From Prorocentrum cordatum (taxonomy: Eukaryota): a stretch of DNA of 64,000 nt. The position numbers and the translations under genes are program-made. Location: contig CAUYUJ010000114.1 in NCBI GenBank assembly GCA_963575745.1, positions 186,001 to 250,000 of the forward strand, written 5' to 3'. The number at the start of each line of letters is the position of its first letter. The first letter of the stretch is position 1. The notes beneath the pieces were generated by a model, which had not been told where the DNA came from, did not search any database, and saw only the letters and a list, made by a program, of their open reading frames with translations. Positions 44,050 to 64,000 of this stretch are shown one piece after another.

Positions 44050-46089
44050 CATTTAAGACTGGGGACACTCCGTTCTCACCAGTGCCAGGGTTTTCATAGG
44101 AGGCGGGCAATACCCCCACTTTGTGGGGGGGCCGGTTCAAGCTCTACCAAATTTCCAAACGACTCTTCGCCACCACCCACACCCAGCTTCCCGCCCTATG
44201 ACGTTCGGACACTTCACTTCGTGGCATGCGGACGACCGTGGCTACTATTCAGGGCCCCGCGGCCGACGACGACGGCGTGCGCGCGCGAAGAAAAAACGAA
44301 TGTGTCCAATATGGTATTATTTGACAGGGATGATGGCCCTGGCATGCGCGCAACCGTTGTTGCAGAAGTTCGAAGCACGTGAAAAAGTTGCTCGCAAGAG
44401 CCCGTTTGACAGAAATGTTGAAAAAATAGTGGGTTTCCTCAGAAATCCGCAAGAGCGCGCGGGATGAATTTTGAAACTTTTTTTTTGAAAAACCATTGGG
44501 TTTTTCATGTTTTTATGTTAAAATCGTTACGAAAACTAAGGTTTTGGAAGGATTTCATCTTGCGCGCGCGAGTGTGCACTTCGTGTCATTTTCTTCAAAG
44601 GATTCTTGAAGTTTGGTTATGTTAGAACAAGAAATTTCATTTTATAGTGTTTTTTGCAAGGGAAAGCGGGCGTCAACAAAACAACCGGATCTGGATGACA
44701 TCGTTTTACCTGAGACTTCCTCACGAAAATTATGAAAATGTGGCTGCGGCCTAGGCGCGGGGAAGGGGGCGTGCACCAGGGGGCCCAACAATAATTATTC
44801 TTTAGAATTAATAATGTTCAACAACAACAACAATAACAACATTCATTGTAAGACTGTTCGCTCCGATCTGCCCGCGTGCCACTCAACGAATACATCCCAA
44901 ACCATCCGTACCAGCCCTCTTCGTCAACGATCGTACACCCATGGGGATACATTTCGCGCGGACCCCAAGGCAGGGAAAGAGAGGATGGATGGAAGGAAAA
45001 GACAGTGGGGAGGGAGGAGGATGGAGCACGAGAGAGATTAGCAGGACGGGGGCTGGGAGCAGAAAACACGTGGCAGAACCAGACGGGCAGATCAGGCAAG
45101 ACCCTAACGGGCAAGCCCGGAAGGCGGGCCAAGGCGGCCAGGTCAAGCAGGCGGGTTGCTGAAGCGTGAGTCCTGCATGAATCGCAAAGAAGTCTCGAAT
45201 GACAGCGCGATCCCCAAGTGAATCGTGAGAAAATCCTGGGCGAGAGCGTGACCCCTGAGTGTGAAGGGGGGGCGTCTGAATGAAGTGCGAAGACGTCCCA
45301 CGCGAAGGGCCAATTCCTGCATGAAGTAAGTCCCGCCCGATAGTACGATTCTGGAATGGACGGTGGGGAAGTATGAAGAGGAAGTCGTCATTGTTGTGGT
45401 TCGAATCCAAACAAAGCACTTTGAGCAGGAAGACTTTCCCTGAATAAAAAACAGGGTTCGGGCCCCGAGGTCATTTTCCAACTGAAAAAACATACTGTGC
45501 ACCGGTGGGGCGGGATCAACAGCAATTATTCCTCAGAAGTGAGAGTTCAACAACAACAACAACAACAACAACAGCAGCAGCAGCAGAAGCAACAACACCA
45601 GTCATTGTAAGACTGTTCGCTCGTATCTGTTCGCGGGCCACTTAGCATGCACATCCCGGGCCCAAGATACCCGCCCTCTTTTTCGTCTTCGATCGTACCC
45701 CATTGGGGGTAGAAGGCGGCAAGGTCGAGCGGGCGGTTGGCTGAAGCCTGCGTCCTGCATGAATCGCGTGGAAGTGTCGAGCGACAGCGCGATTCTCAAA
45801 TAAATCATGATGACATCCTACGCGGGAGCGCGATTCCTGATTCAATTGTGAGGACTTCCCGCGCAAGAGCGCGATGTGGGAATTTATTGTGGAAGTATCG
45901 GGCTGGAGCCGCTGTTGCTGTAAACCGGGGCCCGGGGGTACAGTGGGTGGCACCTCCCTTCGCCTTATAGAAAACAGAGTGCGAGTCCCTGGGGAACCGT
46001 ATTTGCTAAACATGATATGGAGACTGGGGTGATAAACAACAACTGATACGTCGAAAAGAAAACTCGTCAACAACAGTTGGTAAACATTT

Positions 46090-46134
46090 TATCACTACTA
46101 CTACTACTACTACGACTACCACTACTGATACTGA

Positions 46135-46179
<45 letters not shown>

Positions 46180-46393
46180 CACTACTACTTCCACTCCTTC
46201 TACTACTACTACTACTACTACTATTACTACGACGACTACTACTACTACTACTACTACTACTAATAATAATAATAATAATACGACTACTACTACTACTACT
46301 ACTGCTACTACTACTACTACTATTACTACTACAACGACTGCTACTACTACGACTACTCCGACTACTACTACTACTACTACGACTACTACTACG

Positions 46394-46425
<32 letters not shown>

Positions 46426-46469
46426 CACTACTACTACTACTAGTAGAAATACTACTACGACGACTACTA

Positions 46470-46505
<36 letters not shown>

Positions 46506-46606
46506 GTATTACGAAGACTACTACGACTACTACGACTACGACGACTACGAATGCTGCTGCTACTACTACTACTACTACCACTACCACTACTACTACTACT
46601 ACAACG

Positions 46607-46659
<53 letters not shown>

Positions 46660-46726
46660 TACTACGACTACTGCTACCACTACTGCCACTATTACGACTA
46701 CTGCTACTACTAGTGCTACTACTACG

Positions 46727-46760
<34 letters not shown>

Positions 46761-46795
46761 TACTACTATACTACTACTACTTCCACTACTACTAT

Positions 46796-46832
<37 letters not shown>

Positions 46833-46891
46833 GCGACTACTGCTACTATTACTGCTACTACTACTACTACTACCACTCATATAATCAGCCT

Positions 46892-46922
<31 letters not shown>

Positions 46923-46927
46923 GACTG

Positions 46928-46964
<37 letters not shown>

Positions 46965-47226
46965 TACTACTACTACTACTACTACTACAACTACTACTAC
47001 TACTACTACGACTACTGCGACCACTACTACTACGACTACTACTTCCACGACTAACACCATTAACACTACTACGGCTGCCACTACTACTAACTAAGACTGA
47101 TACGACTACGATTGCCACTACAACTACTACTACTACTACTACTACTACAACTACGAATACTACTAACTACTACGACTACCGCTGCTACTAATAATACGAT
47201 TACGATCACAACTACTACTAGGACAA

Positions 47227-47262
<36 letters not shown>

Positions 47263-47368
47263 CACTACTACTACTACTACTACAACTACTGGTGTTACGA
47301 CGACCGCTACGATTACTAGCACTGCTGCTACTACTACTACTACTAATACTACTACTACGACTACTGCG

Positions 47369-47403
<35 letters not shown>

Positions 47404-47409
47404 GACCAT

Positions 47410-47446
<37 letters not shown>

Positions 47447-47964
47447 GCTGATACGGCGACTACTCCTACTACTCCTACTACGACTACGACTACTACTACT
47501 ACCACTACTACGACTACTACTACCACTACTACAACTAGTACTGTTAATACTACTGCGACTACTACTACTACTACGATTGCTGCTACTACTACTTCTTCTA
47601 CTACAACTACGCCTACGACCTTGACTACGACGACTAGTACGACGACTACTACTACTACTAATACTTCTACTACTACTTCTACTGCTACGACCACTACTAC
47701 TGCTACTACTACTTCGACGGCGACGACTACGAATACTCAACTATTACTTCTACCACGGCTACGACTGCTACTACTACTGCTACTACTATTACGACGTCTA
47801 CTACAACTTCTGCAGCTACCATTACCACTGCTGCTACTACTACTACCACTACTACTCCCACTACTACCACTACTACTACTACTACTACTACTGCTACTAC
47901 TACTACTACTACTGCAACAACTACTACTACTACTACTACTACTACTGCAACTACTACTACTACG

Positions 47965-47996
<32 letters not shown>

Positions 47997-47997
47997 G

Positions 47998-48046
<49 letters not shown>
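46090..48046. repeat. ~2-kb degenerate (CTA)n microsatellite
   Basis: Directly visible. Confidence 0.97.
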
Positions 48047-51252: not shown

Positions 51253-51358
51253 ACTACTACTACTCGTACAACTACAACTGCTACGACTACTACAACTCCT
51301 ACGACTAACTGCGACTACTACGACTACTACCACTACCACTACTACGACGACGACAACG

Positions 51359-51402
<44 letters not shown>

Positions 51403-51463
51403 AAGTGTTGCTAGTACTGCCCGTGCTACTACTACTACTACCACTACTACTACTACTACTACA

Positions 51464-51501
<38 letters not shown>

Positions 51502-51551
51502 CACTACGACTACGACTACTACGACTACTACGACTACTACGACTACTACTG

Positions 51552-51589
<38 letters not shown>

Positions 51590-51886
51590 GCTACTACTAC
51601 GACCACCACTACGACTACGGATACCATTACTACTGCCACAAGTATACCTACCAATATTCTTACGACCTGTACGGCCACGGCTACTACTGCTACGACTACT
51701 ACAACTACTACTACGACCATTGCTACTACTTCTACTACTGCTACTACTATCACTACTGCTACTACTACTTCTACTACTACGACTACTACGAATATGACTA
51801 GTACTACAGCTTCGACTACGACTACGACTACGACTACGACTACGACTACGACAACGACTACGACCACGACTAGGACTACGACTACG

Positions 51887-51951
<65 letters not shown>

Positions 51952-52184
51952 GACTGCTGCTGCTGCTGCTGCTGCTACTACTACTACTACTACGACGACT
52001 ACGACTACGACTACGATTGCTAATACTACTACGACTACTACTACTACTACTACTGCTGCTACTACTACTACTACTACAGCTACGACTACGACAACGACTA
52101 CGACTAGGACTGCGAAAACGACTGCGACTACTACGACTACTACTACTACAACTACTAATACTACTACTACTACCACTAGTACTA

Positions 52185-52225
<41 letters not shown>
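51253..52225. repeat. (CTA)n/(CTACGA)n microsatellite
   Basis: Directly visible. Confidence 0.97.
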
Positions 52226-52226
<1 letters not shown>

Positions 52227-52329: not shown

Positions 52330-53225
52330 TTGTGGGTGTGGGTGTGGGTGTGGGTGTGGGTGTGGGTGTTGGTGTGGGCGGGGTGTGGGTGTTTCATGTA
52401 AGATGTATGATGATGTATGATGATGTGAGATGGTGTATGATGTTGTACGATGATGTATGCTGATGTATGATGGTGTACGATGATGTATGATGATGTATGA
52501 TGTTGTGCGATGATGTATGATGATGTATGGTGTTGTACGATGATGTGTGATGATGTAATGATGTATGATGACTGTTGTGTGGCGTTTGATTATGTTAGAT
52601 GTATGGTGATCGATGGTGTATGATGTTGGATGTTTGATGTTTGATGTTGAACGATTTCGGATGTTTGACGTTTGAGGTTTTATGTTAAAGGATGTTGGCT
52701 GATGCTTGATGTTTGACGTTTGGTAGTTGTTGACGTGTGATGTTTGATGATTGTTGATGTTTGATGTTTGATGATGTATGATGTTTGGTGTTTCATGTTT
52801 GATGATGTTTGATGTATGTATGATGTATTATGATGTATGACGCATGGTGTACGATAGTGTATGACGGTGCATTATGATGTATGGTTTTTTTTGTTGTGTA
52901 TTATGATGTATGATGTATGATGTTTGGTGATGTTGTATGATGTATGATGTTTGATGATATATGATGTTTGATGACGTATGATGTTTGATGGTGTACGATG
53001 TTTAATTATGTAGGATGGTTGATCATGCATGGTGTATGTACAATGTTGTACGACGCATGATGGTGTATGGTGTATGTGTAATGTTGTATGGTGAATGATG
53101 GTAGGGTGTATGTATAAAATTGTACGATGTCTGATGATGCATGCTGCATGTATAATGTTGTATGGTGCATGGTGATGTATGATATATGTCTCATGTTGTA
53201 TGATGAATGATGTTGTATGGTGTAT
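52330..53225. repeat. (GGTGTG)n followed by (GAT)n/(GATGTAT)n simple repeats
   Basis: Directly visible. Confidence 0.9.
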
Positions 53226-53244
53226 GTATCACGCCTTCGTCGTC

Positions 53245-53680
53245 AAGCCTCCCAGGAGGCTTCCCAGGAGGCCCTAGAGGCCTGTCAGGAAGCCCTAGAG
53301 GCCTCTCAGGAGGCCCCAGAGGCCTCTCGGAAGGCCCAAGAGGCCTCTCAGGAGGCCAAAGAGACCTCTCCGGATGTCCGAGGGGCCTGTCGGGAGGCTT
53401 AAGAAACCTCACAGGAGGCCCAAGAGGCCTCTGAGGAGGCCCCAGAGGCCTCTCAGGAGGCCCCAGAGGCCTCTCAGGAAGCCCAACAGGCTTCTCAGGA
53501 GGCCAAAGAGGCGCTCCGGATGCCCAAGGGGCCTCTCAGGACGCCAACGAGGCCCCCCAGGAGGCCCAAGAGGCCTCCCAGGAGGTCCAAGAGGCCTCTC
53601 AGGAAGCCCAAGAGGCCTCTCAGGAGGCCTCTCAGGAGGCCCAATATGTCTCTCAGGAGGCCCAAGAAGCCTGCCAGAAG
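53245..53680. repeat. 21-bp minisatellite GAGGCCTCTCAGGAGGCCCAA, truncated by the LTR
   Basis: About 20 diverged units ending abruptly at 53680. Confidence 0.9.
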
Positions 53681-53853
53681 TGTGTGAGGGTGAGGAGGAC
53701 CAATGGACCGACCCCACCCCCGAGTGTCCGTCGGTAGACGATGAGGGACGATGGTTTTACCCAACGTACCTCCAAGTATCGAGTACCTGTCATCCGAGCC
53801 AAGAGGGGCGATGGATATGAGCAAGATAGGAGGAAAGTAGGGGGATTCACACA
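53681..53853 (-). repeat. Putative 3' LTR (~173 bp) of the copia element
   Basis: Bounded by the 7-bp inverted repeat TGTGTGA (53681-53687) / TCACACA (53847-53853). Preceded on the minus strand by G-rich CGGGCGGGATCGGGACGGGG (PPT-like) and abuts the satellite. Confidence 0.55.
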
Positions 53854-54612
53854 CACACCCCGTCCCGATCCCGCCCGATGCCAACGCACAAAAGCGAAAG
53901 GCACCGAAGCGGGGATCGGGATAGGAGAGTGAATCTCTACTGAACTCCTGTCTGCAATCCACTGCTTCGGCCCAGGAAGGAAAGGAAGGGACAGCCAAAG
54001 CTCTGTCGTAAGGTTCGTACCCAACGGCGGCGCTAACCTGCAAAAAGTTTTACAGCGCCAGCCGCCGAGATAGAACCCAGGACAGTGCTGTGGGCTGGAG
54101 AGAAGTGGAATGGAGAGACTGAACTCTTATGACACCGACCCAAACGGTCGGTGCCCGAAGCAACACATGATAATCATGAATATGAAGTCTTCAATCCAAT
54201 ACCAAATCAAAGTAATCAAATCAGTCACGGTACGAGGGTGGTGAAAATCTTTTTATGCAAGTTCCATATCCAATCTGTACCAGATGCAATATGTACGTCT
54301 TGCCACAGTTCAAATCTAAAGGATATTTATGCAATTGTGCATTATGCGATTTTTTTTTTTTGAATCTATATGAGTAGTATTATCCCATCATGAGGATAGC
54401 TGTCACCATAAACTTTCTCACAGTTGTTGAGTCCATGAAGAGGAAGAATCCTTGAAGTGATATACTGATCAAAAGGTAAGTGCGAGCGTCCTCGAATACT
54501 ACATGTCATCGAAGAAAATGATATAATGCATCAATAGGCACATCAACAATACGATAAAGTTGGAAGCCATTCAAAATCTTATGGGCGGCATGGCAACCAG
54601 TTTCCTGGTGCG

Positions 54613-57600
54613 TCAGCGTGGAGGGTCCCAGCGCCATGATCTGCCCGTATATTTCCCCGATATGTACTTCTTATTCCATGCAGTCGCGCCCCATCCATTA
54701 TTGACGAACGGATCCCACGCTTTGATCCAGATGAACTCGCCCCAATGGTCGTACCACTGGCGGTCATACGGTGCAATTTGCCTGTCATAATAGTGGGCAC
54801 CGTATTCAGCACTGTACCCGTGGGTCACATTCGAAATGGCGGGGCGCTTTGCCAGAGGTGGTCCATCATCGGGACGCGCAGGCGCATATCTGGCAGCGGA
54901 GGCGGTATGGCCATGGCTGTCGAACGCGCCGGAAGAAGTACGATACTCGGATGTGTGTGGTGGTGGCTGGGGGGTTGGATCGGTCCCGCTCCCCCTAAAG
55001 TCACCCCCACTACTGCTTCCTGGAGCGTTGCCGCTGCGGTTTCCCGCTGCACTGGCGGTCTCCTGAAGCTGAGAGTAGTATTCTTCGCGCTCTCGCTTAA
55101 CACCGGATCGGATCTCGTCCCGGGACCCAGTCAAAGACTGTGGGTGTGCACGAATTTCTGCGGCGGTGATGGCACCGCGGAGAGATTCGCCCGGGACGTG
55201 AACGGTAAGGTGGTTGCGCTGAAAACGTTCACGAAGTGTTTCGGCTCCAAGGTTCGGCGCTCCGACCTCTTTCCTCTTTTTGGAGGCCTGCCAGAGGCGA
55301 TCGGCCTCAGTGGCAACTTCTAACGTCCATGCAACCCTACCAGCCTGAGTCCGAACTGTCGTCATCTGCTCACGAAACTCATCATCCTCCGCAAAGCGCT
55401 GTGCTAGAGACATGTATGGATGATACATGGGAGGATAATTTGGATTCTCAGGCGGGATGCCGTCCGCGTCGGCGTCTGCACGTAGCTTGTCGCACTCCTC
55501 CCGAGATGGAGAATTCCAAGCTAGCCACTTCTGATGCCGTTTGTCAGCTTTCTTCCCCATGTTTTGAAGCTCGTCTTTAGCGTCTGTCTGTGGCTTCTTC
55601 GAGCCACGCGTATCAATGGGGGCAGCTGTGATGCGCTGGGCGACGTCATCCGGCTGAGTGGCGGCAAACGCAACGAACTGTTCTCGCCAGGCCGCAACTT
55701 CGTCCGGCCATTTGGAGTTCTCGTACCTCATGCAAAAGGCACATTTCAGAGTGGCCCCAGGCGTGTCCAAATCAGCTGGCATCCGAGCGTTGCAAATTGC
55801 GCAAGACGGGATGCGAGTCTGTAGCTCTGGAGGTGCCAGTCCTGTGCTCTCGTCGAACTGAACGACCCCTGCGAGCAGGGTCGCGAAATTCTCCTGAGAT
55901 ACGCTCCCACCTGGCGCAGAGACGATTTGGCGGGCCCGATCGAGGTGATCAGGTTCAAGTGGGGCAAAGATCTTCTCGTCGTCTTCGTCCAAGATCTTGT
56001 CAAGGTCGCTGCGGTTTCCCGCTGCACCCTGAGACTCGGCGGAGGCGGAAGCAGCGACAGCCTGGTATGCATCTTGGAGAACTTGAGTGGCGAGTGTGCG
56101 TTGTGATAACTGTGAACCAACGACAGATTCAATAACGGTTTTGGTAGCCTCCACATTGTCTTGCGATGCTAGGGTTTCCCCTTGCTTCGTAGCCAATGTG
56201 GAAATCTTTCCGTCGTGGGGCGCCTCATTCACGAACTCATCCTCCACATAGGTCTCTGTGCCCATGCGGAGTGCAGCAAGGCCAGGATGATTCTGCACAA
56301 CCTCGGCGTTCTCAATGTCGATGAGTGCAAATTTGTCGCCAGCCTGCTGGTAGAGGTTCAAGTATGCCATGGCGCACCATGAACGTCTGCCGTATGCCAG
56401 GGTTCTGTATCGGAAAGTACCAATGCACTGGAAAAGGTACTTTGTGAAAGCTCTGTGTCCACATTGGTCTGGGAAACGGTGACACCATGGTGCATCGCAG
56501 TTGAACTCGAAGGTCATTGTTGTATTTGCGATATCGTCCATGTTCAAGACAACGGTGTACTCCATGGTCTGCTTCACTTTGGTGTTAACGACACCGTGAT
56601 GCCCAGATCTACGAACAATGTGGACTTTCTTGACTGCTTTGAAATAGTCTGGTAGGTCGGACTGATCTGGTCCATATGTGAGAGTTTTCTCCGCGTTATC
56701 CTCCATTGTTTCGATTTCATTGCGGATATCATTCAGCTCTGGGGACCAGTCATCCTTCTTGAGGAAGTCATCATCAGCATGTTCTGGAACATGTGGCACA
56801 GTGTCACCATTGCTGCGATTTCCCGCTGCGCCGTCATCATAACTTTCCTCTGGAAAATCCGTTGGTACAGGGATTTCGGTCGGCGAGCTCTGGTCCTGTG
56901 TGGGGACCGGCATCTCTGTAGGTGAACTGTGATCGTCTGCCGCCAGAGGGTGATCCTCCGCTGCCGGCGGAGGATAGTCGGGCGAGTGTGGAGTGATAGT
57001 CGGCGACGGAGGGTCAACTGCCATTGGTGTCGGTTCTGGTACGACTGTCGGCGATGACTGGGCCGGAGGTACATCGTCAGTGGGCACGTCCAAAGACTGA
57101 GGGCTCCTGATCAATTTAAGCAATTCACCTGGCTCAGCTTCACGAGCATCTATGTCGGCGACCTCCTCAACCTCTGGGGGCTGTTGACTGGGGGCGCTGC
57201 GGTGTCCCGCTGCACTAGAGGCGTCTGTATGCCTCTGGCGCAGTGGAGCACGAAGATCTCCCACAGCCCTGACGTCACTGGTCGGCGTCATGATCGCATG
57301 ACGGGGTGGAAAGTTAACTGGGGGACCGAAGCGAAGGTCATCTGGGAGTGAGTTGGCGTCAAAGTCTGGGCAAGGTACAACGCGGGCAAGCGTGTTGCCC
57401 GCAAGCATGCCCTTCGTGCCATCCCAAACGTTCATCCAGTGATCTCCGATTTTCACGGTCACGTATCCCATGAACTGGCCTACCTCGCGAATGGGTCCGA
57501 ATAGGGATCCCATTGGTTCGCCTTCATGAGGGCTAACGCGCTCGCCAACCCAGGAACCATCTGAGTGTTTCGATGGCGGGTGAGAGTAAAAGTAGCAAGC

Positions 57601-60600
57601 TTGTCTTGTTTGAACGTAGTCTCCAATCCGATAGGTCTCGTGGGGACCCATGGGCGGCCAGGCTGACGTGATGTGGCTAACGCGGCCCTCAGTGGCAGCC
57701 TGTAGAAACCATTGGTCGTAACGCTCGTGAATCTGACGATTACGCTCGCGCTCCTGGTCTGTTGTCAACTGCGAAGCTGCGGTTTCCCGCTGCATAACAG
57801 TTGGTATAGAGACGTCAGGGGCGGATGTGTCGCCAGACTCGTCACGATGTGCTCGGATCGGGGGTGCCACAGGGCGGATGTTAACCAACCCGACGGCCTT
57901 TCTAGCCGCTGTTAAGGCATTGATTGCATCAGCGAGTCTACTCTGTGTCCTCAGCAGCGCGGCCTCGGACTTAGCAAGGGCGGCTTCCCTCTCGGTGGCC
58001 TTCTGGGCAGCAGCCGCGGCCGCGTTGTGTGGGTCTAACGTGAGGCCCTCAACTCCCTCGGAGACTTCTTCCACGGCTGTATCTCTCGGCGCGGCGGTCT
58101 CCCGCTGCTCTGCTGCGATCTCTCGCTGCACGTGCGGGGGGGCCGAAGCGATGGGAGTGTGTGCCGGTGGAGGTCCTGGGGGGAGCGGCGGAACAGGCGG
58201 CGAAGCCTTGGCAATACCTTGTCCAGGTACAGCTCCCACTGGTGGCGGCGCATGCCGTGGTGGCGGTGGTGGAACCCTGTTGTCGCCCACGACCTGGCCA
58301 GGATACACGTTGGGAGCGATCGGCGGCGGTAACTCTCCTGGAGGAGGTCTGCCGACGCCTTCTGGTGGCGGGGCCTTCCTCTGGGGTGTCTTGGGAGCAC
58401 GTTGCCCAGGCTGGCCTGGCTGGAGTGGAGTCGGAGGCGGAGGCGGAGGCGGTGGAGGCTTCTTTGGCACATCGTTGCCTCGAGCCAGGGGTCTGGGCTT
58501 GTGCAAAGTCGGAGCAGACGGTTTAGGTGGGGTTGGAGGTGCAGCTGCGGTTGCCCGCTGCGCATCGCCCCACGGGTTATTGCCATGGCCATACACTTGC
58601 CATGGCCACGAAACTGTGGAGCGCTCATACTTGGACCGTGGCTCAGAATCACGAGGAGGTCTGGCCAGGTCGTCGTCGTCTGGGCGCCCCCAGATTATTT
58701 TGCCGGTAGCGATGTTCCTGCAACGAATAAGACAATGTACTGGGATGTCGCGTTCTGCCATTATCGCGCCCTGTTTACCCTTCCACCAAGTGATGCCAGC
58801 CGTAGCGCATTTCTGATGGTCAATCTGAAATTCACACTGTTTCTTAGCGGAATGAAAGACGTACGGCGGTATGGTGGTGTAGGGGTTCTGGCCGCAAGAG
58901 TGAGAGAAAGGATGAGCGGAGGCAAAGACCTCGGCACGGGTTGCCCCATGCTTGTGGTCTCGCTTGTCGAATCCTTTGATTATGCCTGGGTTAGACCTTG
59001 GTGAGCCTTCGGTAATGCTCCGCACTGAAGACAGCTCGGTTGCGTGCCAGAGATATGGAGTGTCATGAACAGACAACTCCTCCCAACCCATGTTGTGGGC
59101 TGTGGAATATGGGTGCACCTCGGACTGACCACCTGTGCTTCGTATGGCCAAGATGCGGCCGAACGGAAACGTAAGTGGATTGAGGTCAGAGCCGACGGGT
59201 GCAAACACTTCTGTGCGCGACTTTCCATCTGCATGGTATTGCAGCATACGAATGGCCATGTAACAATAGTAATCGGCCAAGTCGATGTAGTCACCATTGT
59301 CACGCTCAGTTTCCCAACACGCTAGGACGGCCTCGTTCGTGGGTGTCTTGCGGTATTCCCATTTCTCCTTCTTTTTGTGGTAGTATTCTTGCTGGCTGCG
59401 CTGCCAGCAATTCATCGCACACTCTCGAAAGGTGGATGTCTTGGAAAAATCGATGTTCAGACGCCGATCGTGATATGCGTTGGTCACTCCACTTGTGTGA
59501 CGGAGTATCGTCATGAGAAACTTGCTAAACTCCCAGCGTCCGAAGTCGCATCCATCAGGAAGAGGTGGGCCGTATGGGCAATCTCGCCATGGGGGCAAGG
59601 CGATCCACTCATATGCTCCCTCGAACCAGCGGCTGCCGACGAGATCGTCGGCGTATTTGAGCACGTGAATGTCCTGTTCATTGGTCAGGCGCCGCGGGTC
59701 GTTCTCGGGGACATTGTCCGGGATTGTTCTGCGAAGCAGTGGATCGACATCAAAAATGACAATGGCATTTGGATGATCGGGATCAATCAATGCTAACTCT
59801 CGTGGGGTCTTCCATCTGTCCATGTCATCTGTACGCTTCTTGACCCCGGAGAAGTAGCATGCCCGCTGTGGTGTCAAAACTTCGTACTTGGACGATGTCT
59901 CTTCGGCTACGGTTTCCCGTTGCAAGACCGTGTCATCGTCCTCGGACTCAGCGGTCGTCATCGGGTGGTTGTCCATCCACTGCTGGGCCTCCGGGTTGAG
60001 AGCCATTTCTTCCGCCAATCGGAGGTGCCGGGCATCGCCTTTACCGTTCTTCATAAGGTCAGGGTCGAGCAGGTAAAGGCCGGCGTAAATGGCGGCACAC
60101 AGTCGTGCGTGTCTCTCGCGCCAGGAGGTCTCGGATGTGCATTCCATGTAGCCAGTGATCCAAGAGTTACGGTCTGGTCCAAGCGATTTATTACGAGTGT
60201 CCTGGAGAAGGCCTCGGTATAATTTGGACATCTGAGAAACATGATCGGCCATGACATAATCGTCCTGAGTCATCACTAATGCATATGTCGGGTCAGCCGT
60301 CGTGTCCTCTGTGACTGGCAAGAAGGTAATGTCACCTTCTTGGTTCAGAACGGCGCGCATCCCAAGGTCCTCACGCTGCTGAATAGATTCTGCGTTGGAA
60401 GCAAAGGCCGTGGTTGCGCGCGTGGATGTCTCGTCTTCGTTTTTCATACCAGATCGCTTAAGATGTGCTGTGATCATTTTGGCGATCTCGGGAGCGACGG
60501 TAGGCGGGGCGGCGGCTGTAGCAACGGTTTCCCGTTGCACAGCTGCGGTGTCCCGCTGCTTGGTCCAATTGCAGAGGTTATGAGCGGCACGCATGCACAT

Positions 60601-63600
60601 CAACTCATTGGTCTTCGCACGATCAACGTTTGATGCTGAAACGTGATCGTATAGACTCTGGATGTGTACTTGACGATGGTGCCACGCGATCAGCAACATG
60701 TGGGACAAACTATGAGATTGTGGCTCATTAAGCGGCTTCACTGCGGGCTGTTTGAAAGCGTAGAACTGACTTGGCTTAGAGTTCATTACGCCGTAAAGGT
60801 TCTTGAGTGTTGCAAAGGTGACCCATTGCGCAGCGAAGCGAGCCCAATTCGCACCTGTCTTCTGGCAGTGCCATCCATCATCCTTGGTGCGATCCATAGC
60901 TTGTGTCCATGCCGAGTTGTTGATCACGGAAATACCACGTGTCTGCATAAGGATGCACATATCTTTCGAGATGGTGTCGAAGTGGTGAGGTAAGCCCCAA
61001 TCTTTGGCCGTGCCAGGGCCAATGACGTGAGGATGTTTATACCAGTTCGCAACGTCGCAAAATCTATCAAGGCCGATAGTGATATGCGGCATCATCTCGA
61101 GCAGGCATCCTTCTTGTGCTTCCCACTTGCGTTGGTACGCACGGTGGTCCCGTCTCTCCCAACCCAGGTCCACTCTTTGGGCATCGACGCTTTTCTGATT
61201 GTAGTCTGGGAACGTGATGTCATTGTTGTTCCACCAGAAAGTGGCAGTGGCACCACGCTCATACCACAATTGTTTGTAATGAGCATCAAGGTCGGCCCAA
61301 GTGTCCCATAGGGCTTCATCCATGTCGAAGTAGCGTTTTCTTTGAGCGGTGTCCATATTCTGGGCGCGCATCTCTCTGAGCGTGGCGATTCTTTCGAGGA
61401 TATCACGATGGAGACTCCAGAGTGAAGAATCAATACCATCAATGGTGGTGCCTTTTTCAGCGTTGGTGATGATGATTCGTTTCCTCTCCGATGCGCGCTG
61501 GTCCAGGCGCTGAAGCTCTGGGACAAGGCTCAGGTCTTTGTAGTCTTCATCGGACGAACCCTCGGGGCGCTGAGGAAGATCCGTGCCTGGCTGCACGACG
61601 TGATCATCCCAGAATCCTGGAATGTAGGAGTAGAACCAGTCCAGGATACAGTCCCGAGCCGCGGAAGCTAGAGTAGCGAGAGTGGCTCCTCCCATGTACT
61701 CTTGATGCACTGGGGTTGGGACGAGTAGCGTTGAGAAGGGTTGTCCAACTTGGCGAATACAATCATAACTGCACAGCATGTTGATGGCCTCTTCAGGCGT
61801 ATGGTAATTCTTGCTGGCTTTTCCCATCATAGGTCCCGAGTCGGTGAAGATGTAGAAGAATGGGGTGGCAGTGCCTGTAGGTCCAAGGGCATGGTTAATG
61901 GATAATCCAAGATCCTCTGTGGCGATCTGCATCCAGCCATTCTCATCCGCGAAGCATTTGAGCACGGAAGCGTTGGTCCACGTGTGATGCTTAGCGTGAT
62001 CGAAGTCAATGAAATCGTTAGTACTGTCACCGCGGGATGTAGAGTCGACACAAACCAACAAAGGGTCGGAAGCCAACAAAGGAAAAATCTGTTGGTTGTG
62101 TGATGGGCATCCGAAGATGTTTCGCCTTTGGTGTCCCGGGGCCCAACCACTAGTACGAACGGGACTCTCGTTCGCCTCAAGATCCTCACGCCAGGGGTCA
62201 TCACCGCTGCGGTTTCCCGCTGCGTACCGATGGCTACCTGTGTCGGTGAGGCTAGCGATGGCAATGGGGCGAGACAAGTGGCCCCCAGATCCGCACGGCG
62301 GGTCCAAACGACAACTGCCCCCTCCTATGTACTGGACATGGTGTTTAGGCGAAGCCGTTCTCATGTCACTGTTGAGGTCTCGAGCGGGGATGTCGATGAA
62401 CGAGTTGTAGCTGTTTTCCACGAACGAGCCAACCGAACCTGCGCAGTCGCTCTTGTGTGGAAGAGCTTTTCCGTGTGTCAATCCAGAAGAGGGCCGCTGG
62501 ACACCAAAATTATGTCCGTGGTTGGGCGTGTCAAGGCTGTCTAGACCTAATGGGCGATGCTCCTTTTTGTACATGTTATATGTGTCGTCAAGAGAAGAGC
62601 TCACCCATCCACCAATGGCGGTGGATCCAACTGTAGGCCATGCACCTTGGAGTCCTTTCCACAAGGACGTGGCGGCGTGTGAGAGGCACTCAAGAGATGG
62701 CATCAACGGTGGCTCGCTGCGGTCTCCCGCTGCTATGCTGCGGTCTCCCGCTGCACGGCCGAGAGCCTCGGTGCGAAGCCAGTTGAAGTGTTGAACGATG
62801 CTCTCCAATTGGTCACTCATATCCTGGTCGAGGCAAGCCTTGGCTACATACGAATGCAGAACAGCAAAGAATGAAACCCAAGGGAGTGTCGTCTCCTGCA
62901 ACAAATTTTGCATCGAAATCTCAACATCCATCTCGACGGCGTTACGAAGGTCTTTGCGTGAGCATTCAAAGAAGCAAACGCCAGAGCCCTCTGGTGCCTG
63001 AGTAAAAGCTATCGGGAACTTATTAGGGCCTGCCCACGGTAGCTGAGTATCGAACGCAGCTCCAACAGTGGGTCGAATGATTGGTCCGTCTGGAGGAAGA
63101 GTGCAGGCTGGGCGCTGGATCATCGGAAAGGCACGATTGAAACGTAGTGTCCCTACCGTGATGTCAACCATGTCAACGTCCTGGTCATCGCCGCCCTCTA
63201 GCGGGGGTTGCCCTCCGCGTGGAGCGATAGGGTTACCCCCTGAGCTCGATGCGGTGCCCCGCTGCATGCTGCTGGGGGGGGAACGAGACCGATCCTGCAA
63301 CTGTGTGTTTGAGCCGCCTACCGCGCCGGGGCCGGGCGGGGCGGCCGGAGTTTCCTCCGCTTGGGAAGAAACGCTGCGGTTATGCATAACATCTCGTATG
63401 ACAAGAGTGCGTAATGGTGAAGAAGAGGATGGATCAGGGGAAAACGATGTCGAAAAACGGTGACCTGTATCAACCTTACGCCTAGGTCGGGTCGGGCTCT
63501 TAGCCCGGGTCGGTCCCGGGTCTATCTTGGCCCGGGTCGGACTCTTCTGAGGAGACTTGCGGCGTTGTCGCGGGGACTTGGTCCGTGCCGAACGCGAAGC

Positions 63601-63999
63601 GTTGGACCCGGCTGTGATGCTGTGATGATGTCCACATGAGTGTAAACCCTCGTGATTAGGGCAACTAACACATCTCTTACCACATGCTGATCCAACGTCG
63701 CCCCAGGGGTCCTTGGAAGTGAGAGCAACTTCACAGAAGCCCGAACATCCTGGAGGTTTTGGGGGGTCGGCGGAGCGCGGTAGACCGTTGGGTGTAGTCC
63801 CCTCGTCCTCCGTCATAATATGTTGACGCATGCCCTTATTCAATGATGGCGAAGGACGAATGAGCGCAAGCTCGAGAAGTGTTTCCCAAACATTACTCTT
63901 TTTGGAGTCGAAATGTTTTGTCATCATGTCCGCAACTTGTTCCTTAGTACCTACGTGTGACAAATGTATTTGTTCATGTTGACAGACTTCCACGATCCA
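54613..63999 (-). CDS. pol: Copia Pol polyprotein, 5'-truncated by the window: RNase H end plus ~3,080-aa in-frame extension (Cys/His cluster, SGNH-like, Tpt1/KptA-like, Pro-rich, Zn ribbon)
   Basis: Uninterrupted 3126-aa ORF, open to the window edge; begins with the copia RNase H motif TxxQxADxxTK. Confidence 0.85.
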   Translation of the reverse strand, partial: WIVEVCQHEQIHLSHVGTKEQVADMMTKHFDSKKSNVWETLLELALIRPSPSLNKGMRQHIMTEDEGTTPNGLPRSADPPKPPGCSGFCEVALTSKDPWGDVGSACGKRCVSCPNHEGLHSCGHHHSITAGSNASRSARTKSPRQRRKSPQKSPTRAKIDPGPTRAKSPTRPRRKVDTGHRFSTSFSPDPSSSSPLRTLVIRDVMHNRSVSSQAEETPAAPPGPGAVGGSNTQLQDRSRSPPSSMQRGTASSSGGNPIAPRGGQPPLEGGDDQDVDMVDITVGTLRFNRAFPMIQRPACTLPPDGPIIRPTVGAAFDTQLPWAGPNKFPIAFTQAPEGSGVCFFECSRKDLRNAVEMDVEISMQNLLQETTLPWVSFFAVLHSYVAKACLDQDMSDQLESIVQHFNWLRTEALGRAAGDRSIAAGDRSEPPLMPSLECLSHAATSLWKGLQGAWPTVGSTAIGGWVSSSLDDTYNMYKKEHRPLGLDSLDTPNHGHNFGVQRPSSGLTHGKALPHKSDCAGSVGSFVENSYNSFIDIPARDLNSDMRTASPKHHVQYIGGGSCRLDPPCGSGGHLSRPIAIASLTDTGSHRYAAGNRSGDDPWREDLEANESPVRTSGWAPGHQRRNIFGCPSHNQQIFPLLASDPLLVCVDSTSRGDSTNDFIDFDHAKHHTWTNASVLKCFADENGWMQIATEDLGLSINHALGPTGTATPFFYIFTDSGPMMGKASKNYHTPEEAINMLCSYDCIRQVGQPFSTLLVPTPVHQEYMGGATLATLASAARDCILDWFYSYIPGFWDDHVVQPGTDLPQRPEGSSDEDYKDLSLVPELQRLDQRASERKRIIITNAEKGTTIDGIDSSLWSLHRDILERIATLREMRAQNMDTAQRKRYFDMDEALWDTWADLDAHYKQLWYERGATATFWWNNNDITFPDYNQKSVDAQRVDLGWERRDHRAYQRKWEAQEGCLLEMMPHITIGLDRFCDVANWYKHPHVIGPGTAKDWGLPHHFDTISKDMCILMQTRGISVINNSAWTQAMDRTKDDGWHCQKTGANWARFAAQWVTFATLKNLYGVMNSKPSQFYAFKQPAVKPLNEPQSHSLSHMLLIAWHHRQVHIQSLYDHVSASNVDRAKTNELMCMRAAHNLCNWTKQRDTAAVQRETVATAAAPPTVAPEIAKMITAHLKRSGMKNEDETSTRATTAFASNAESIQQREDLGMRAVLNQEGDITFLPVTEDTTADPTYALVMTQDDYVMADHVSQMSKLYRGLLQDTRNKSLGPDRNSWITGYMECTSETSWRERHARLCAAIYAGLYLLDPDLMKNGKGDARHLRLAEEMALNPEAQQWMDNHPMTTAESEDDDTVLQRETVAEETSSKYEVLTPQRACYFSGVKKRTDDMDRWKTPRELALIDPDHPNAIVIFDVDPLLRRTIPDNVPENDPRRLTNEQDIHVLKYADDLVGSRWFEGAYEWIALPPWRDCPYGPPLPDGCDFGRWEFSKFLMTILRHTSGVTNAYHDRRLNIDFSKTSTFRECAMNCWQRSQQEYYHKKKEKWEYRKTPTNEAVLACWETERDNGDYIDLADYYCYMAIRMLQYHADGKSRTEVFAPVGSDLNPLTFPFGRILAIRSTGGQSEVHPYSTAHNMGWEELSVHDTPYLWHATELSSVRSITEGSPRSNPGIIKGFDKRDHKHGATRAEVFASAHPFSHSCGQNPYTTIPPYVFHSAKKQCEFQIDHQKCATAGITWWKGKQGAIMAERDIPVHCLIRCRNIATGKIIWGRPDDDDLARPPRDSEPRSKYERSTVSWPWQVYGHGNNPWGDAQRATAAAPPTPPKPSAPTLHKPRPLARGNDVPKKPPPPPPPPPTPLQPGQPGQRAPKTPQRKAPPPEGVGRPPPGELPPPIAPNVYPGQVVGDNRVPPPPPRHAPPPVGAVPGQGIAKASPPVPPLPPGPPPAHTPIASAPPHVQREIAAEQRETAAPRDTAVEEVSEGVEGLTLDPHNAAAAAAQKATEREAALAKSEAALLRTQSRLADAINALTAARKAVGLVNIRPVAPPIRAHRDESGDTSAPDVSIPTVMQRETAASQLTTDQERERNRQIHERYDQWFLQAATEGRVSHITSAWPPMGPHETYRIGDYVQTRQACYFYSHPPSKHSDGSWVGERVSPHEGEPMGSLFGPIREVGQFMGYVTVKIGDHWMNVWDGTKGMLAGNTLARVVPCPDFDANSLPDDLRFGPPVNFPPRHAIMTPTSDVRAVGDLRAPLRQRHTDASSAAGHRSAPSQQPPEVEEVADIDAREAEPGELLKLIRSPQSLDVPTDDVPPAQSSPTVVPEPTPMAVDPPSPTITPHSPDYPPPAAEDHPLAADDHSSPTEMPVPTQDQSSPTEIPVPTDFPEESYDDGAAGNRSNGDTVPHVPEHADDDFLKKDDWSPELNDIRNEIETMEDNAEKTLTYGPDQSDLPDYFKAVKKVHIVRRSGHHGVVNTKVKQTMEYTVVLNMDDIANTTMTFEFNCDAPWCHRFPDQCGHRAFTKYLFQCIGTFRYRTLAYGRRSWCAMAYLNLYQQAGDKFALIDIENAEVVQNHPGLAALRMGTETYVEDEFVNEAPHDGKISTLATKQGETLASQDNVEATKTVIESVVGSQLSQRTLATQVLQDAYQAVAASASAESQGAAGNRSDLDKILDEDDEKIFAPLEPDHLDRARQIVSAPGGSVSQENFATLLAGVVQFDESTGLAPPELQTRIPSCAICNARMPADLDTPGATLKCAFCMRYENSKWPDEVAAWREQFVAFAATQPDDVAQRITAAPIDTRGSKKPQTDAKDELQNMGKKADKRHQKWLAWNSPSREECDKLRADADADGIPPENPNYPPMYHPYMSLAQRFAEDDEFREQMTTVRTQAGRVAWTLEVATEADRLWQASKKRKEVGAPNLGAETLRERFQRNHLTVHVPGESLRGAITAAEIRAHPQSLTGSRDEIRSGVKREREEYYSQLQETASAAGNRSGNAPGSSSGGDFRGSGTDPTPQPPPHTSEYRTSSGAFDSHGHTASAARYAPARPDDGPPLAKRPAISNVTHGYSAEYGAHYYDRQIAPYDRQWYDHWGEFIWIKAWDPFVNNGWGATAWNKKYISGKYTGRSWRWDPPR
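58690..59540 (-). other. kptA: Tpt1/KptA RNA 2'-phosphotransferase-like domain within the Pol extension
   Basis: In order: FSKFLMTILRH (SKxLSxxLRH), DGKSR (DxKxR), AIRSTGGQS (IRAxQGHS), YLWHAT (LYHGT), GIIKG...RAEVFAS (GLxxxxRxxVHxS) and FQID....GITWWKGKQGAIMAERDIP (IDxxxxxxxGIxFxxSxNGVxLxxxIP). Confidence 0.8.
60800..61870 (-). other. SGNH/GDSL hydrolase-like domain within the Pol extension
   Basis: Four blocks in canonical order: FYIFTDS (block I Ser), MGGATL (II Gly), WWNNNDI (III Asn) and DDGWH (V Asp-x-x-His). Confidence 0.6.
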
Positions 64000-64000
64000 A

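Follow-up and report, generated by a model that had tools for sequence, protein, structure and literature searches.

Does a retrotransposon of a dinoflagellate carry an enzyme of the Tpt1/KptA family within its own polyprotein? The question is raised by a 64,000-nt stretch of the Prorocentrum cordatum genome (contig CAUYUJ010000114.1 of assembly GCA_963575745.1, positions 186,001–250,000; hereafter the window), in which a preliminary description, made from the letters alone, had placed a nicotinamide adenine dinucleotide (NAD+)-dependent RNA 2'-phosphotransferase domain of this family inside a copia polyprotein. Our analysis makes it probable that the domain is a divergent, probably functional member of Tpt1/KptA lodged in a giant Ty1/copia-type long terminal repeat (LTR) retrotransposon whose pol frame has been extended. 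The domain begins about 1,440 residues into the C-terminal extension, which is ~3,080 residues long; the main coordinates are collected in Table 1.

The motifs quoted in the preliminary description all lie in one minus-strand frame, with ILRH starting at residue 1498 (59508), GKSR at 1592 (59226), AIRS at 1618 (59148), WHAT at 1651 (59049) and RAEVFAS at 1688 (58938). That description had also proposed a comparison with the Pfam family PF01885 (PTS_2-RNA; gathering cut-off, 26 bits), which bore it out in part: PF01885 is the sole family reported for a 351-aa piece of the window, at E 0.03 and 14.8 bits over profile positions 74–176 only, a score under the cut-off. An initial word-based homologue search at near lengths found none; phmmer, run exhaustively over 1.84 billion representatives, recovered 13 relatives, most of them fragments, at E <= 1e-3. 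Scanned independently, six of the 13 listed PF01885; the remaining seven comprised four without any family and three with unrelated weak matches. The only relative above the cut-off was P0012 (764 aa; 27.0 bits, E 5.2e-6), with P0009 (23.2 bits) and P0003 (21.7 bits) among those below it.

A family profile was then compared with Escherichia coli KptA by hhalign, using a 13-row trimmed alignment (A2). The two matched over 100 columns, covering KptA 77–176 for the NAD+ lobe, with a probability of 93.5% and E 2.4e-7. The alignment pairs LAIRSTGGQS of the window with RCIRAVQGHS of KptA, YLWHAT with FLYHGT, VFASAH with VHLSAD, and ITWWKGKQGAIMAE with LPFWQAENGVWLTS, so that profile and KptA have in common the motif IRxxGG[HQ]S, the motif H[GA]T, the RxxV[F/H]xS region and the FW.G.QGA.MT strand. 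In the N-terminal lobe, BLASTP matched SKFLMTILRH to SKFLSFVLRH at KptA 13–22 (E 0.006). Judged from these alignments and from the structure searches below, the resemblance of the domain to Tpt1 is beyond chance, and homology to Tpt1 is very likely.

A template-free AlphaFold2 model built from the same alignment had a mean predicted local distance difference test score (pLDDT) of 59.5, with values of about 75–93 across most of the C-terminal lobe. The preliminary description had suggested comparing such a model with Tpt1 structures, and the outcome was as it anticipated: in a Foldseek search of the PDB, all 19 rows listed within ranks 1–21 were Tpt1/KptA (probability 0.98–1.00, best E 7.2e-4), from mouse, human, yeast, T. 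kodakarensis, P. horikoshii, A. pernix and C. thermocellum, followed by PltA, DarT and pertussis S1. Template-modelling (TM) scores normalised to the target were about 0.45–0.49, and identity to the solved Tpt1 structures was 13–19%. VIA-align, a search independent of Foldseek and run over 48,161 representative chains, placed 7yw2_A first (Z 13.1, root-mean-square deviation 2.1 Å over 112 residues), with three further Tpt1 chains at ranks 2–4 (9ld3_A, Z 11.7; 7yw4_A, Z 9.7; 7kw9_A, Z 7.7) and ADP-ribosyltransferases other than Tpt1 at Z 7.5 or less. Because both searches rank Tpt1 first, the NAD+ lobe, as modelled, is assigned a Tpt1-type ADP-ribosyltransferase fold. Together with the hhalign match, this supports the NAD-binding lobe that the preliminary description read from HAT and RAEVFAS.

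The catalytic residues can be placed with the help of published Tpt1 structures, as far as described in the sources cited. The tetrad of CthTpt1 is Arg18-His19-Arg68-Arg121, accompanied by Lys66 and His101/Thr103 (PMC6333775); another account gives Arg17-His18-Arg65-Arg118 with Lys63 and His98 (PMC12678800), and for PhoTpt1 the residues His95-Gly96, Arg115 and His119 are described (PMC10622864). In these enzymes the third tetrad Arg lies two residues past a Lys (K-x-R) and the fourth lies 20 residues past the His of the HGT motif (PMC6333775, PMC10622864, PMC12678800). Since K-x-R thus holds the third Arg and the fourth follows the HGT His at that spacing, the tetrad of the window domain is R1500-H1501, R1595 and R1688, allowing for insertions relative to KptA of about 45 residues between dyad and K-x-R and of about 16 between HAT and R1688. 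The earlier claim of a complete tetrad therefore stands as to the presence of the four residues, but not as to the Arg of AIRS, which belongs to an IRAxQGHS-like motif outside the tetrad. Conservation in the family follows the same positions: the dyad is kept in both of the rows that reach it, the Arg of K-x-R in 4/4, the Arg of IR..GG in 5/5, the His of the HGT motif in 7/8 (as HGT or HAT) and the fourth Arg in 7/9.

Table 1. Features of the giant frame and its surroundings (positions in the window; aa, residues of the giant frame)
Feature	Position	Strand	Remarks
Giant open frame	54613..63999	minus	3,128 codons plus stop codon (54613-54615); 5' end open past the window end
C-terminal tail of copia-type reverse transcriptase (RT)/ribonuclease H (RNase H)	63853..63999	minus	aa 1-49: ...IHLSHVGTKEQVADMMTKHFD...LELALIRP
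18-nt hairpin motif GCAGCGGGAAACCGCAGC, 15 copies	55033..63265	minus (all sense strand)	aa 245 to aa 2984
Tpt1-like domain	58690..59541	minus	aa 1487-1770
Tpt1-like N-terminal (RNA) lobe	59122..59541	minus	aa 1487-1626; SKFLMTILRH, GKSR(TEVF), ILAIRSTGGQS
R1500-H1501 codons	59497..59502	minus	Arg-His dyad of the tetrad; aligned to KptA R21-H22
K1593-S-R1595 codons	59215..59223	minus	K-x-R; R1595, third tetrad residue; cf. KptA K67-K-R69
Tpt1-like C-terminal NAD+ lobe (ADP-ribosyltransferase fold)	58690..59121	minus	aa 1627-1770
H1652-A-T1654 codons	59038..59046	minus	HGT counterpart, Gly to Ala; YLWHAT/KptA FLYHGT
R1688-A-E-V-F1692 codons	58924..58938	minus	R1688, fourth tetrad Arg; RAEVF at the position of KptA RHYVH
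Pro-rich low-complexity linker	58150..58630	minus	~aa 1790-1950; after the Tpt1-like domain
Small module GSLFGP...WMNVW...KGMLAG	57370..57510	minus	aa 2164-2210; BLASTP vs relative P0012, E 0.002
Candidate 3' LTR	53681..54166	minus	~486 nt, TGTGT...ACACA; 447 nt non-coding between stop codon and unit

The frame that holds the domain contains no stop in its 3,128 codons, compared with 57–166 stops in each of the remaining five frames over the same 9.4 kb. It consists of the tail of pol, in the first 49 residues, followed by the extension, so the earlier statement that the domain shares a stop-free frame with copia RNase H is confirmed. The identity of the tail was traced through a search with residues 1–400, which retrieved P0022, a metagenome-derived protein of 223 aa (41% identity, E 9.8e-19). 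P0022 contains the RNase H segment that comes before the tail (EDNQAVIKIV…RTHRINLDW) as well as the tail itself and, like the window frame, does not stop at the end of RNase H but goes on into a Cys-rich stretch. Used as a query in turn, it led to eight metagenome DNA loci. One of them, L005, has an 834-aa open reading frame (ORF) with RVT_2 (PF07727; 29.8 bits against a cut-off of 31.6, E 5.8e-7), of which residues 794–830 align to residues 11–49 of the window frame (E 1e-6) and which stops four codons later; another, L007, bears rve and SH3_retrovirus. ESM Atlas, searched with the pol tail and with P0022, returned no usable match, and P0022 found nothing in Pfam or the PDB. Given the homology to P0022 and to the end of the L005 ORF, the window frame opens with the last part of a copia-type pol and extends ~3,080 residues beyond the point at which ordinary relatives such as L002–L005 stop.

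A candidate 3' LTR lies downstream of the stop codon. Contigs of two public sequencing runs, X3 and X5, match only 53681–54172 and then pass into unlike sequence, and loose ends occur at 53681 in X2, X3 and X5. Summed depth over 53737–54203 exceeds that of the in-frame bins in X1 (90 vs ~18) and X2 (318 vs ~100) and is also higher in X5; in X3 it is not raised (8.3 vs ~7–9). The repeat behaviour of the 53681–54172 unit fits a 3' LTR. No second copy occurs in the 64-kb window, so the unit stays an unpaired candidate whose partner would lie outside. Because only 49 pol residues fall within the window, the copia linkage rests on the tail and on this candidate, and we regard it as likely that the domain belongs to a copia-type element. 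The earlier phrase 'inside a copia polyprotein' accordingly holds for the in-frame pol tail and the candidate LTR, with the reservation that those 49 residues are all of pol that is visible and that none of the relatives obtained shows RT together with Tpt1.

The continuity of the frame was examined in contigs of four public sequencing runs from four studies (X1, X2, X3 and X5), which tile it. No intron-like joint is listed within 54.6–63.4 kb; two small joints are listed at 63427–63809 (X5) and 63485–63526 (X2). Contigs of X1 and X2 are near-identical to the window (0–5 differing letters per 270–1,787 nt), with 1–19 differing letters per 349–1,223 nt in X3 and 6–51 per 289–579 nt in X5, and about 790 variant places were recorded in all. 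One X3 contig (record 24), ~3% diverged, covers 63459–64000 and extends past the window end; as it comes from an independent assembly and spans the junction of pol and extension, that junction is not peculiar to the window assembly.

The domain also has a family. The annotation of Prorocentrum cordatum includes a paralogous copy (CAK0816554-7, our P0015–P0018) at 95–97% identity. The gene models concerned are chimeric, in that a non-haem dioxygenase gene has fragments of the element frame spliced to its N-terminus, and for this reason we consider the element mis-annotated there as a host gene. Between the paralogue and the window domain eight amino-acid differences were counted by eye, none at motif residues, a number too small for a selection test. 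The stronger argument for constraint comes from more distant relatives, which at 27–44% identity keep the motifs amid flanks that are not alignable. Four peptides in EukProt, under the label Pyramimonas sp. CCMP1952, are members as well. For the Tpt1-like domain, 487 pattern matches turned up in JGI metagenomes and 69 in viral contigs, none of which was confirmed via tblastn. With diverged relatives in existence, the Tpt1-like domain is not a one-off. The preliminary description had named a single neutrally evolving copy and an assembly chimera at the pol junction as possible objections; the 13 relatives with the paralogue answer the former in respect of copy number, and the X3 contig answers the latter.

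Several results count against the identification of the domain and must be weighed here. Taken by itself, the window copy falls short of the PF01885 cut-off; the whole 3,128-aa frame matched no Pfam family at E <= 1, and a 450-aa chunk (residues 1501–1950), which holds most of the domain and starts just after the Arg-His dyad, gave no Pfam match. NCBIfam, PADLOC and PHROGs gave no match for the domain or two relatives, and neither the family profile (hmmsearch) nor the domain itself (phmmer) found a Tpt1 among PDB sequences. The N-terminal hhalign match spans 13 columns at E 0.0044 with a probability of only 7.8%, R1595 lies outside the hhalign alignment and is assigned via motif order and spacing, and the N lobe has pLDDT < 50 (model residues 1–98) and, folded alone, a mean of 41.3. 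A chance match, or a generic ADP-ribosyltransferase fold unrelated to Tpt1, would be at home among such weak single scores, including the 14.8 bits, the TM values and the mean pLDDT; it is nevertheless very improbable, since four independent lines (Pfam on six of the 13 relatives, hhalign, Foldseek and VIA-align) converge, VIA-align separates the top three Tpt1 chains (Z 13.1–9.7) from other ADP-ribosyltransferases, and the Tpt1-specific N-lobe motifs occur in the right order. A genuine Tpt1 homologue might instead have degenerated into a nucleic-acid- or NAD-binding module, or a structural part, that performs no ADP-ribosyl transfer. The site deviates at conserved positions: the residue four past the fourth Arg is Phe in 7/9 family rows, the window included, and His in none, and the window copy has HAT in place of HGT and GGQS in place of QGHS. 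In PhoTpt1, His119, whose position F1692 occupies, hydrogen-bonds the ribose 2'-OH of nicotinamide mononucleotide (NMN) and packs on the nicotinamide (PMC10622864). With these changes at the NAD+ site, the large N-lobe insertions and the sub-threshold Pfam match, catalysis by the domain could be altered or lost. Degeneration is unlikely all the same: the window copy retains the whole tetrad together with the Lys of K-x-R, the Arg positions persist across relatives at 27–44% identity in the pattern expected of a working site, and the Gly-to-Ala change touches main-chain contacts only. The Gly of HGT binds the nicotinamide amide through its main chain (PMC10622864), and as the HGT contacts are main-chain, Ala in HAT may be tolerated. 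On the sequence we lean slightly towards a catalytically competent domain.

The link to copia is open to a different objection, that the Tpt1-bearing sequence is a separate gene family, of the host or of another mobile element, and that chance or a lost stop codon joined it to the remains of a copia pol in this lineage of copies. RT, integrase and gag lie outside the window, as does the 5' LTR; relatives P0003, P0012 and P0019 have no RT in the same protein; the copia-type relatives L002–L005 stop within about 5–45 residues of the RNase H tail; and the small module changes its order in P0012, being N-terminal to the Tpt1 domain there and C-terminal in the window frame. What makes such a fusion quite improbable is the lack of a single stop in a frame of 3,128 codons that includes the pol tail, the fact that P0022, too, reads through the end of RNase H and enters a Cys-rich stretch of similar kind, the presence of the junction in the 3% diverged X3 contig, and the placement of the repeat boundary and LTR-like unit downstream of the frame rather than between pol and extension. 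The hairpin motif described below likewise runs through the frame, from residue 245, about 200 residues past the pol tail, to residue 2984. The evidence is thus in better accord with a divergent Tpt1/KptA domain in the extended pol frame of a copia-type element.

The domain would be translated within the element's polyprotein together with pol and, if active, would act on replication intermediates or the primer of the element itself. By the chemistry of Tpt1 step 1, a phosphate monoester on a nucleic acid would attack NAD+ and become ADP-ribosylated. RNase H processing and primer removal give rise to 5'-phosphate ends. As RNase H processing leaves such ends and Tpt1 acts on 5'-phosphates, 5'-end capping of cDNA or RNA is our preferred guess: the reaction might end in a stable ADP-ribose adduct on cDNA or RNA ends, such as a 5'-phospho-ADP-ribose cap, with the 3'-OH still available to integrase. 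Tpt1 enzymes are described as able to ADP-ribosylate 5'-phosphate ends of RNA and DNA (PMC6182162, PMC6582358, PMC12678800). The notion of a stable adduct draws on the Phe that replaces the His contacting the NMN ribose 2'-OH. A histidine has been suggested to deprotonate O2'' of ADP-ribose in step 2 (PMC6097658), and according to PMC12678800 the group responsible for that step is still unclear; for this reason we can only infer that Phe may favour a stalled ADP-ribosylated product. Completed removal of a 2'-phosphate would be the alternative outcome and seems less likely. The roles put forward in the preliminary description, namely processing of the tRNA primer, capping of cDNA or RNA ends and countering of host defence, are likewise to be read as possibilities.

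The frame carries a second recurrent feature, an 18-nt motif in 15 copies. Thirteen copies in the frame lie within <= 3 mismatches of a near-identical pattern, for which 0.10 is expected. The motif is read in two frames, as AAGNRS in seven copies and QRETAA in eight; its flanks are not conserved, and three tandem pairs are spaced 21 nt apart (example sites, 62206–62223, 60521–60559 and 58091–58129). These peptides were considered as protease sites and rejected, being one DNA motif read in two frames. All eight pieces folded (six single copies and two tandem pairs) gave the same hairpin with a 4-nt loop, mostly of GNRA type, at -5.2 to -11.2 kcal/mol for the singles. In the stems 98.3% of cells are paired, compensatory changes occur in 2/6 pairs, and the observed covariation was reached by 2/500 shuffles. 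Among the possibilities are a protein-binding or packaging signal in the RNA and a small in-frame insertion element. That a giant copia lineage of dinoflagellates turned Tpt1 into a dedicated nucleic-acid ADP-ribosyltransferase, capping the 5'-phosphate ends of its cDNA or RNA and so protecting them against exonucleases, end-joining or sensing, with the hairpins as a second lineage-specific device, is a bolder proposal, to which we give little credence at present.

Beyond the Tpt1-like domain, Pfam (the whole frame and ten 450-aa chunks, with chance-level matches only) and NCBIfam revealed no further recognisable domain in the extension. Aligning the small module and the upstream segment with P0012 and P0019 gave nothing informative. 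A Pro/Ala-rich stretch follows the domain in relatives P0003 and P0019 also, and the very high contig depth in the bin 58407–58873 is attributed to low complexity. The peptide RQACYF occurs on both sides of the domain, upstream at residue ~1378 (about 59850–59900) and downstream at residue ~2125, a repetition that hints at duplicated modules. Immediately after the RNase H tail comes a Cys/His-rich stretch (63700–63852, minus strand, residues ~50–130; C..FC...C.KRC.SC...H.C.HHH). It recurs in the metagenome copia-type relatives (CCADCG...C.C), where it forms the extreme end of pol, L002–L004 ending after a short Cys-rich tail; the stretch in the window may represent a zinc-binding tail that served as the starting point of the long extension.

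The surroundings are rich in simple repeats. The element appears to abut a 21-bp satellite starting at 53680, and 18 copies of a 21-bp unit, CCCAAGAGGCCTCTCAGGAGG, occupy 53251–53672. Further downstream of the element lie an ATG/TG-rich minisatellite (52396–53229) and an (ACTACT)n block of ~162 copies (51253–52226). Rfam, searched over 53000–64000, gave only sub-threshold matches, in the satellite. Composition is anomalous at 46001–48000 (GC content 0.39, GC skew -0.63) and at 1–2000 (GC skew -0.35), probably reflecting simple repeats.

Compared with known enzymes of the family (PF01885; E. coli KptA, mouse TRPT1 in 7yw2, T. kodakarensis KptA in 9ld3), the domain shares the NAD+-lobe fold, the tetrad and the motif order SKxLxxxLRH, KxR, IRxxGG[HQ]S, H[GA]T, RxxV.xS and FW.G.xG..MT strand. 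It differs in its N-lobe and HAT–R1688 insertions, in Phe for His, HAT and GGQS, and in being embedded in a polyprotein of > 3,128 aa, whereas Tpt1 is a free enzyme of ~180–230 aa. With Ty1/copia LTR retrotransposons (RVT_2, PF07727; L005) the locus shares a homologous RNase H tail and a candidate TG...CA LTR downstream; ordinary members, L002–L005 included, end pol just past the tail, whereas the window frame adds ~3,080 residues. As described in PMC6431247, the Burro elements of planarians, with a 5,140-aa ORF1, are likewise LTR elements that gather extra domains in one long frame, but they differ in superfamily (gypsy), host and domains; a term search of that review of giant transposons found none of ADP-ribos, phosphotransferase, copia or dinoflagellate. 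The DNA methyltransferase (DNMT)-bearing retrotransposons of Symbiodinium resemble the present case as dinoflagellate retroelements that captured an enzyme modifying nucleic acids (PMC5890265). As far as that source sets out, they are LINE-like or tyrosine-recombinase (DIRS-like) elements, and their enzyme is a cytosine methyltransferase, not an NAD+-dependent one. The preliminary description was thus correct in citing DNMT capture by dinoflagellate retrotransposons, with the qualification that Symbiodinium Copia elements lack DNMT according to the same source (PMC5890265). It also knew of no Tpt1-bearing LTR lineage, and we agree: the full-text literature searched, with incomplete coverage, describes no Tpt1-bearing retrotransposon. 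New here is the domain combination, Tpt1 with a copia-type element, along with a divergent Tpt1 subfamily.

Tpt1 is present in all domains of life. What it does beyond fungal and plant tRNA splicing is still a matter of debate, and the roles proposed include 5'-end ADP-ribosylation and the turnover of NADP(H) (PMC12678800, PMC10622864). If our reading is true, a retrotransposon whose Tpt1 tetrad has stayed intact over deep divergence would amount to a natural experiment on this question, pointing to a role on nucleic-acid ends in reverse transcription or integration. NAD+-dependent nucleic-acid modification would then join the list of accessory functions open to capture by eukaryotic retroelements, and a copia-type pol frame lengthened by > 3,000 residues bears on the size and repeat richness of dinoflagellate genomes.

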